The position numbers were made by a program, and so were the translations under genes. From assembly GCA_050013255.1 (NCBI GenBank), contig JBEKFP010000001.1, forward strand, positions 1,120,001 to 1,184,000: a DNA stretch of 64,000 nucleotides, read 5' to 3'. Positions 5,301 to 31,613 of this stretch are shown one piece after another; position 1 is the stretch's first letter, and each line of letters begins with the position of its first letter. Origin of the DNA: Candidatus Bathyarchaeia archaeon (GTDB lineage: Archaea > Thermoproteota > Bathyarchaeia > 40CM-2-53-6). A model generated the notes under the pieces. That model saw only the letters and a list, made by a program, of their open reading frames with translations. It did no database searches and had not been told where the DNA came from.

Positions 5301-5408
5301 TGGTGGACCGGGCGGGATTTGAACCCGCGACCTCCCGCATGCCAAGCGGACGATGTGGTCGCATCGTGTTGATTCATCGATGCTCATACCAGGCTGATCT
5401 ACCGGCCC
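5301..5408 (-). tRNA. tRNA-Ala(GGC) with a 30-nt D-arm intron (22/23)
   Basis: After removing a BHB-like intron: GGGCCGG-TA-GATC..GATC-G-TCCGC-TTGGCAT-GCGGG..TTCAAAT..CCGGTCC-ACCA; G3:U70 Ala determinant; CCA encoded. Confidence 0.92.
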
Positions 5409-5764
5409 AACGGTTCGAGTGCTTTCCACCTCCGCCTAAAAACCTTCGTACTACTTTCGTGCACTTCTCCGCCTTTTCAAGCTACAACAGAGGTTTACCA
5501 TTGAAGCTCAATCTTGGCGAACCCGTGTGACATCAATCATTGTCCTGTTACGGAAACTGATTACGAACGGTCTTGTGACGCGAACATATGCCGAAGGCGC
5601 ACATTGATTCGAGCTGCCCGACTGCGCGCTGGCTCGTGTACCAAAGTTCCAAGGCTTTTGGAGTAGGGCGCTTGAGATCAGTCCAGCACTGGATGAAATG
5701 TGTTGCAATTAGAAGAAGGCTTAAGTTGTTGAGCGGAAAGCTGTCTTGCTCGGTGCCGGGGAAC

Positions 5765-5902
5765 GCCGAGGTAGGACAGATTCCCTCGAAAGCTCAGCCT
5801 GGGAGAGCACCCGAACAAATCGTGGTGAAGCTGAAGACCGGGTTGACTACGCTACATAAAGCGTAGGCCAAATCGCGGATTCAAATCCCGCCCTCGGCAC
5901 CA
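5765..5902 (+). tRNA. tRNA-Phe(GAA) with three introns: 5773-5790 (8/9), 5814-5829 (30/31), 5846-5872 (46/47)
   Basis: Cutting at three BHB motifs gives a 77-nt cloverleaf: GCCGAGG-TA-GCTC..GAGC-A-CCCGG-CTGAAGA-CCGGG-TTGTC-GCGGA-TTCAAAT-CCCGC-CCTCGGC-ACCA. Confidence 0.9.
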
Positions 5903-12370: not shown

Positions 12371-12501
12371 GCGGCCGTAGTCTAGCCTGGTCTAGGACGG
12401 GAACAGCAACGGAAGTTTGCTGACGCAAGCCTGCCACGCTTCTGATCGCCCCTTAGTAAGGGCGAGAAGACGCCCGGGTTCAAATCCCGGCGGCCGCACC
12501 A
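12371..12501 (+). tRNA. tRNA-Gly(GCC) with two introns: 12403-12428 (29/30) and 12445-12471 (45/46)
   Basis: GCGGCCG acceptor; spliced anticodon arm GGAGC-CTGCCAC-GCTTC; BHB with CTTC/GAAG central helix; CCA encoded. Confidence 0.92.
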
Positions 12502-31490: not shown

Positions 31491-31613
31491 GGGCTCGTAG
31501 CTCAGTCTGGATAGTGCTTGCAGGTTGAGCATCTAAAGCACAGGCCCTCTAAACGCTTTGTAAAAAGCGGGGGACGCCTGGGGTCCGGGGTTCGAATCCC
31601 CGCGGGCCCGCCA
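31491..31613 (+). tRNA. tRNA-Arg(TCT) with two introns: 31515-31536 (22/23) and 31553-31575 (38/39)
   Basis: BHB motifs GGAT/ATCT and CTCT/GGGG; spliced arm CAGGC-CCTCTAA-GCCTG; TTCGAAT T-loop; GCCA end. Confidence 0.9.

Follow-up and report, generated by a model that had tools for sequence, protein, structure and literature searches.

A three-intron tRNA-Phe(GAA) gene of a Bathyarchaeia archaeon, with an intron at position 8/9 and a candidate folding helper in its 5' leader

Up to three BHB introns per tRNA gene have been described in the Thermoproteales and the Thaumarchaeota (PMC4033280, PMC4390854, PMC8450103), and the three-intron tRNAs of the Thermoproteales include tRNA-Glu(UUC) of Pyrobaculum calidifontis and tRNA-Pro(UGG) of P. 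islandicum (PMC4390854, PMC4033280, PMC8450103). Three introns per tRNA gene was the archaeal maximum in reviews up to 2021; a 2026 preprint on Asgard archaea reports up to five intervening sequences per tRNA gene, and that standard callers miss many (10.64898/2026.10.13.758758). As for the splicing enzyme, (alpha-beta)2 EndA with the crenarchaeal loop cuts relaxed BHL motifs, and the loop residues K44 and R46 give it the ability to cleave introns that lie at non-standard positions (PMC3241643). Our literature search found no paper on tRNA introns in Bathyarchaeia. The locus described here, from a genome of that group, is a multi-intron archaeal tRNA gene of the known kind and, for its own organism, an ordinary member.

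The gene, for tRNA-Phe(GAA), lies at 5765-5902 on the plus strand of the window, by which we mean the whole 64,000-nucleotide stretch that was analysed. In the source genome (G000; 2.46 Mb, three contigs, 50% G+C) this corresponds to G000:C1:1125765-1125902. Judged from its sequence, the gene is very probably functional and apparently the only one for this tRNA; the splicing itself we infer. Structure, splice motifs, conservation, covariation and the encoded enzymes together support the functional reading. Exon 1 (5765-5772, GCCGAGGT) provides tRNA nt 1-8 and is separated by intron 1 (5773-5790, 18 nt, at 8/9) from exon 2 (5791-5813), which provides nt 9-30, the D arm and the 5' strand of the anticodon stem. 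Intron 2 (5814-5829, 16 nt, at 30/31) is followed by exon 3 (5830-5845; nt 31-46), which contains the anticodon loop CTGAAGA, the 3' strand of the anticodon stem and the start of the variable loop. Beyond intron 3 (5846-5872, 27 nt, at 46/47), exon 4 (5873-5902) contributes nt 47-76 with the T arm, the 3' acceptor strand, A73 and an encoded CCA. An earlier note on this DNA had read three introns at these positions of a tRNA-Phe(GAA), and the sequence reads as claimed. The four exons lie in their normal order within a span of 138 nt, and the gene is neither split nor permuted.

The joined exons come to 77 nt, with a perfect 7-bp acceptor stem and a cloverleaf of -33.5 kcal/mol, and ARAGORN calls the spliced product tRNA-Phe(gaa). 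The 7-nt loop that holds the GAA anticodon has U33 and R37, G occupies position 20 in the D loop AGCCTGGGA and the discriminator is A73, a set that we take to be the identity elements of tRNA-Phe. The spliced product is identical at 70 of 74 positions to the uninterrupted tRNA-Phe of another Bathyarchaeota MAG (L032), so that the exon junctions are fixed independently of the BHB motifs. Two scans of metagenome contigs gave no match to the spliced junctions. It had been stated that removal of introns 2 and 3 leaves a clean cloverleaf; ARAGORN's call bears this out, but the T stem (T arm, 5877-5889) has an A53.C61 mismatch instead of the near-universal G53-C61. A53 is common to every member of the genus, one species of which has a covarying 49-65 pair, and G53 is found in other Bathyarchaeia families. 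The mismatch is a deviation of the mature tRNA, and not of the gene call.

The locus is intergenic, with a gene for a KaiC-like ATPase downstream and, upstream, a TrmB-like regulator and a divergent tRNA-Ala(GGC) gene (5304-5408, minus strand), which has one 30-nt intron at 22/23 and lies 357 nt from the tRNA-Phe gene. An overlapping open reading frame from a mechanical listing (5588-5866, 92 aa) matches no Pfam family and was treated as spurious.

How does such a gene look to routine annotation? ARAGORN finds 0 tRNAs in the unspliced window. The Rfam tRNA model, which places two other tRNAs in the window at its gathering threshold and matches just 25 loci genome-wide, has no match at the tRNA-Phe locus even at E<=10. 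The suspicion that standard scanners miss the gene was thus well founded for these two tools. We wrote a SPLITS-like scan anchored on the T arm and acceptor, which allowed up to three BHB-bounded jumps, made a second pass for introns of the 3' module and validated its candidates with ARAGORN. It yielded 24 plausible tRNAs genome-wide, among which the single GAA anticodon is that of the tRNA-Phe locus, ranked second by score. Under the same rules only tRNA-like loci score above 20.8 in the genome, which, with the rank of the locus, argues that its structure did not arise by chance. The tRNA-Asn gene was located separately, by a brute-force genome scan for 8/9 introns; with 322 candidates that scan was too noisy for any other use.

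An intact second tRNA-Phe(GAA) gene, the finding that would have spoken against the earlier reading, appeared in none of three kinds of genome scan. The SPLITS-like scan showed no second tRNA-Phe in a census that covers about 25 of some 46 expected tRNAs; blastn-short with the spliced sequence matched only the gene's own exons and the conserved arms of other tRNA genes; and a genome scan for uninterrupted GAA anticodon arms found none in a tRNA-like context. That tRNA-Phe is single-copy is well supported, not proven.

Three-intron tRNAs were considered rare in the earlier note, and in this organism they are not: at least six others were parsed in the genome, namely Lys-TTT, Gly-CCC, His-GTG, Leu-CAA, Glu-CTC and probably a CAT tRNA. 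The tRNA-Glu(CTC) gene (G000:C1:26413-26560, minus strand), for example, has introns at 10/11, 29/30 and 59/60. Within the window, tRNA-Gly(GCC) (12371-12498, plus strand) has two introns, at 25/26 and in the variable loop, and a 120-nt Rfam tRNA match at 31491-31610 (plus strand) is interrupted and was left unparsed by the SPLITS-like scan. Position 8/9 is a recurrent intron site, being used in tRNA-Leu(GAG) and tRNA-Asn of this genome and in 13 distinct sequences of tRNA-Phe orthologues. The intron of tRNA-Leu(GAG) (G000:C1:1244030-1244168, plus strand) is 24 nt long, with H GGGG/CCCT and an h' of 6 bp. We also observed a 29-nt BHB intron within the 3' acceptor strand (68/69) of tRNA-Asp(GTC) (G000:C1:292744-292845, minus strand), and T loops of sequence TCCGAAT, in which C replaces the universal U55, in tRNA-Gly(TCC) (G000:C3:241310-241401, minus strand) and tRNA-Ala(TGC) (G000:C1:1378495-1378607, plus strand).

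The splice motifs were read with the geometry h, 4-bp H, 3-nt bulge and h' on one strand, opposite h', H, bulge and h on the other, the cut falling after the second base of each bulge (arrows below). In the strict hBHBh' form both outer helices, h and h', have 2 bp or more (PMC7714728). Introns 1 and 2 fit it, and intron 3 is relaxed. In BHB-1, H pairs C3-G6 with CTCG (4/4), the bulges are GT↓A and AA↓A, h' is GGA/TCC (3 bp) and h is G1C2/G10C11 (2 bp). In BHB-2, H is C25-C28, CACC/GGTG (4/4), with bulges CG↓A and AA↓G, h' AC/GT (2 bp) and h A23G24/C32U33 (2 bp). BHB-3 keeps the core of two 3-nt bulges (TG↓A and AA↓T) around H at G41-U44, GGGT/GCCA, which pairs at 3/4 owing to G41.A and reaches 4/4 in several relatives; its h' has 7 bp and it has no h. 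For intron 3 an alternative register (H GGTT/GGCC, cuts GA↓C and AA↓A) would leave a 7-nt variable loop. It was rejected on two grounds: with cuts at 46/47 the relatives form a 4/4 helix, and the variable loop of intron-less homologues is 5 nt long, a length that only the 46/47 register gives.

That intron 1 has a strict BHB made from the 5' acceptor strand proved to be exactly as described. So did its incompatibility with the acceptor stem: the motif is built with nt 1-6 of the acceptor strand and nt 10-11 of the D stem, and neither the acceptor stem nor the D stem can therefore form alongside it.

A DNA search for tRNA-Phe orthologues matched 35 of 41 related genomes. A pattern scan of named genomes identifies the relatives as Bathyarchaeia MAGs, the nearest being a peat MAG (SPRUCE 525) and 'archaeon RBG_16_50_20'; the bacterial matches of that scan are unrelated and have no BHB (H 0-2/4). 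In more than 25 Bathyarchaeia genomes the exons and motif geometry are kept and the intron hairpins covary. Across the genus the exons are essentially invariant and the introns divergent; exon 1 is identical in all orthologues but one, where A5G is matched by a compensatory substitution in the 3' strand. For intron 1, h, H and both bulges are kept in 13 distinct orthologue sequences from several families, with H either CTCG or CTTG and with double substitutions in h' (GGA/TCC, GGAA/TTCC, GGGA/TCCC, GAACC/GGTTC, GAGA/TCTC). Introns 2 and 3 keep BHB geometry in 24 distinct sequences, with many compensatory changes in h'. The H of intron 2 pairs 4/4 in all 24, and its h' varies as AC/GT, CTTGG/CCAAG, CATC/GATG, TGC/GCA and others; relatives have a 4/4 H at intron 3 (GCCC, GCCT), with h' CTACGC/GCGTAG, CTATGC/GCATAG, CGGC/GCCG or CGGCC/GGCTG. 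Intron 1 was seen in just three of the genus genomes sampled and also in other families, and it is therefore probably ancestral and repeatedly lost. Some orthologues have four introns, at 8/9, 30/31, 46/47 and, in the T loop, 59/60: L003:1559-1760 (= L052, 'archaeon RBG_16_50_20'), and also L024, L025, L034, L055, L061 and L073.

Two EndA paralogues, at G000:C2:171513-172085 and G000:C1:301907-302470, are encoded in the genome together with an RtcB ligase, and both paralogues have an N-terminal and a catalytic domain. The EndA of 190 aa has its closest matches in the catalytic alpha subunits of two heterotetrameric enzymes, those of Aeropyrum pernix and Sulfolobus tokodaii. It aligns with the A. 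pernix alpha subunit (3p1z_B; E 1.5e-38) without a gap across the crenarchaea-specific loop, where K and K align with K44 and R46, and the stretch with the catalytic His, GPGIDHAPFIV, is identical. By its sequence this protein is a predicted catalytic subunit of the crenarchaeal type, with the specificity loop. There are, in other words, two distinct EndA-family subunits, one with the loop and its basic residues, as in an (alpha-beta)2 enzyme. The RtcB match (G000:C1:110968-113778, minus strand) is in two pieces about 1.4 kb apart within one frame of 1039 aa, and has the look of an intein-type insertion.

Upstream of the gene, a TATA-like element (CTTAAGTT) lies at 5720-5727 on the plus strand, 45 nt from tRNA nt 1, and nearly all tRNA-Phe orthologues have a CTTAAKT element 33-45 nt upstream of +1. 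Where the leader holds a copy of the acceptor strand the distance is 40-45 nt; of five genes with no such copy, four have 33-37 nt and the fifth, L008, has 41. General archaeal promoter geometry would place the transcript start near 5750, just before such a copy: at 5752-5761 (plus strand), 3 nt upstream of nt 1, GGTGCCGGGG can form 10 bp (one G.U) with tRNA nt 66-75, and so could stand in for the 5' acceptor strand. By RNAfold, a precursor with a 17-nt leader comes to -64.7 kcal/mol with BHB-1 enforced and to -57.0 with the acceptor stem enforced, versus -46.7 and -53.9 kcal/mol, respectively, for the leaderless precursor. The leader thus moves BHB-1 relative to the acceptor stem from +7.2 to -7.7 kcal/mol, that is, by about 15. 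The minimum-energy fold with the leader (-66.0 kcal/mol) combines the 10-bp helix between leader and 3' end with a BHB-1-like fold, and it uses a 9-bp helix that competes with a three-BHB structure. Three strict BHBs formed simultaneously would not overlap, but they come to -48.5 kcal/mol, and we do not claim them.

The same flip in energy is produced by the leaders of seven orthologues with intron 1; in six genes of the four-intron clade intron 1 is present and the leader does not flip the balance. In the tRNA-Phe orthologues a leader run of at least 8 bp occurs in 8 of 17 genes with intron 1 versus 2 of 15 without it. When 25 tRNAs of the source genome were examined for such a run against their own 3' ends, it was found in Phe, Asn and Glu-CTC only, whose introns are at 8/9, 8/9 and 10/11, respectively; none of 20 other tRNAs has one, and mismatched controls gave 5 in 576. 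The leader of tRNA-Glu(CTC), GGTGCTCCGG, is complementary to its own 3' end over 10 bp, as in Phe. Leu-GAG (8/9) and Gly-CCC (11/12) are exceptions, with an early intron and no stand-in leader, and no leader stretch within 30 nt of tRNA-Leu(GAG) is complementary to the 3' end of that gene. A GGT extension that pairs with A73-C74-C75 is found only in Phe genes with intron 1; a further gene with intron 1, L066, has AGT in its place. The copies themselves are not confined to genes with the 8/9 intron: acceptor-strand copies matching at 7/7 or 6/7 lie upstream of intron-1-less Phe genes too (L011, L015, L017, L012 and others), and the uninterrupted tRNA-Phe genes of L032, L033 and L053 have an exact copy of GCCGAGGT 13-24 nt upstream.

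What order of events might bring such a precursor to a mature tRNA? One precursor of about 155 nt would be transcribed from the TATA-like element at 5720-5727. The two-paralogue, crenarchaeal-type endonuclease would remove the introns at 8/9, 30/31 and 46/47, each cut falling between the second and third nt of a 3-nt bulge, and RtcB would then join the exons. On balance we lean toward the leader (5752-5761) pairing with the tRNA 3' end (nt 66-75), which would free nt 1-7 to form BHB-1. Intron 1 would be cut first; RNase P would then remove the leader, and the real acceptor stem would form. The leader may, on these model folds, be a built-in folding helper, whose GGT-extended stand-in holds the 3' end and imposes removal of intron 1 before removal of the leader. 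We consider this role evenly poised between right and wrong, its support being computational and only partly consistent across relatives. If the stand-in works in this way, intron 1 goes before leader removal, which fits the order put forward in the earlier note; the note had overlooked the leader segment itself. It went further and held that splicing has to come before folding and RNase P cleavage, which is reasonable to infer, though not a necessity. After splicing, the stand-in helix would still be favoured over the acceptor stem (-47.6 versus -38.4 kcal/mol), and the switch back is unexplained. Removal of the leader by EndA was considered and dropped, as the cut would fall one base off in the AAC linker that joins the stand-in to nt 1.

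It is a real possibility, though one toward which we do not lean, that the leader copy has no role in splicing and is a relic of local duplication, or serves another end such as promoter spacing or handling by RNase P or a La-like protein. Removal of intron 1 would in that case take place either during transcription, ahead of the synthesis of the 3' acceptor strand, or in a transient unfolded state. As the 3' strand follows exon 1 at a distance of 101 nt, the former would have a kinetic window, and the idea gains from the Phe genes that have the copy with no intron 1, including the uninterrupted ones, as well as from the four-intron clade and Leu-GAG, which manage an 8/9 intron with no good stand-in. 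The nascent folds, however, speak against it: BHB-1 is missing from those to 5800 and 5872, and the fold to 5829 is only BHB-1-like, with a 5-bp central helix and a one-nucleotide bulge. Nor would a simple duplicate account for the GGT by which the stand-in outruns the acceptor strand, and which occurs only in intron-1 genes, or for the restriction of long leader runs in this genome to tRNAs with early introns.

A different way around the conflict between motif and mature fold would be for the enzyme to recognise intron 1 as a relaxed motif with a single bulge (BHL-type), the precursor keeping a cloverleaf-like fold in which the acceptor stem stays closed. The catalytic subunit here keeps the loop with which (alpha-beta)2 enzymes cleave relaxed BHL motifs (PMC3241643). 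We nevertheless think this improbable, because the intron's CTCG or CTTG pairs acceptor nt 3-6 in 13 of 13 sequences, with the 3-nt bulges in register, a conservation that goes unexplained if the pairing is unused. The least probable reading, to which we give very little weight, is that the locus is a decaying tRNA pseudogene whose introns are insertions that are never removed. The silence of the standard tools, the A53.C61 mismatch and the relaxed BHB-3 might suggest decay. One would not, however, expect a decaying gene to keep exons that are identical across the genus while the substitutions in its introns compensate one another and leave the BHB geometry intact, nor to share a conserved A53 within a covarying T stem; moreover, no other tRNA-Phe was found, and at least six other tRNAs of this genome are built alike. 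The reading of a functional, spliced tRNA-Phe gene, with the leader as its candidate folding helper, is the one that we carry forward.

With this gene, intron-riddled tRNA genes extend from the Thermoproteales, Thaumarchaeota and Asgard archaea to Bathyarchaeia of peat and soil. Routine annotation with ARAGORN or the Rfam model would leave the genome with no tRNA-Phe, which bears on estimates of MAG completeness and on inference from codon usage. The 8/9 intron offers a clean example from nature of a splice signal and a mature fold that are mutually exclusive, and the leader stand-in, if it acts as proposed, would be a simple RNA-encoded switch that orders processing steps. The stand-in, a product of computation, is the sole element here that is potentially new: no description of such an element was found in the literature searched, the Thermoproteales multi-intron literature we searched describes no leader complementary to a tRNA 3' end, and the word 'leader' is absent from the text of the Asgard preprint (10.64898/2026.10.13.758758).

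Compared with the multi-intron genes of the Thermoproteales, the present gene is alike in having no more than three short BHB introns, at canonical and non-canonical positions of one colinear gene, in the presence or absence of introns among close relatives, and in the accompanying heterotetramer-type EndA with its specificity loop. It differs in its lineage, Bathyarchaeia, in that none of its three introns is at 37/38, and in that one of them builds its motif from the 5' acceptor strand. The Asgard preprint (10.64898/2026.10.13.758758) describes a similar state, with most tRNA genes interrupted, many introns missed by callers and BHB-competent sites, and it puts acceptor-stem and junction introns in a small 'other' class. 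The split tRNAs of Nanoarchaeum equitans and Caldivirga maquilingensis offer a further likeness, since there too a flanking leader pairs within the precursor and sets up the substrate for EndA (PMC4390854, PMC3218864). Unlike in those split tRNAs, the exons of the tRNA-Phe gene are colinear in one transcript, and its leader, which is not BHB-bounded, would pair with the 3' end of its own tRNA rather than with a second transcript.
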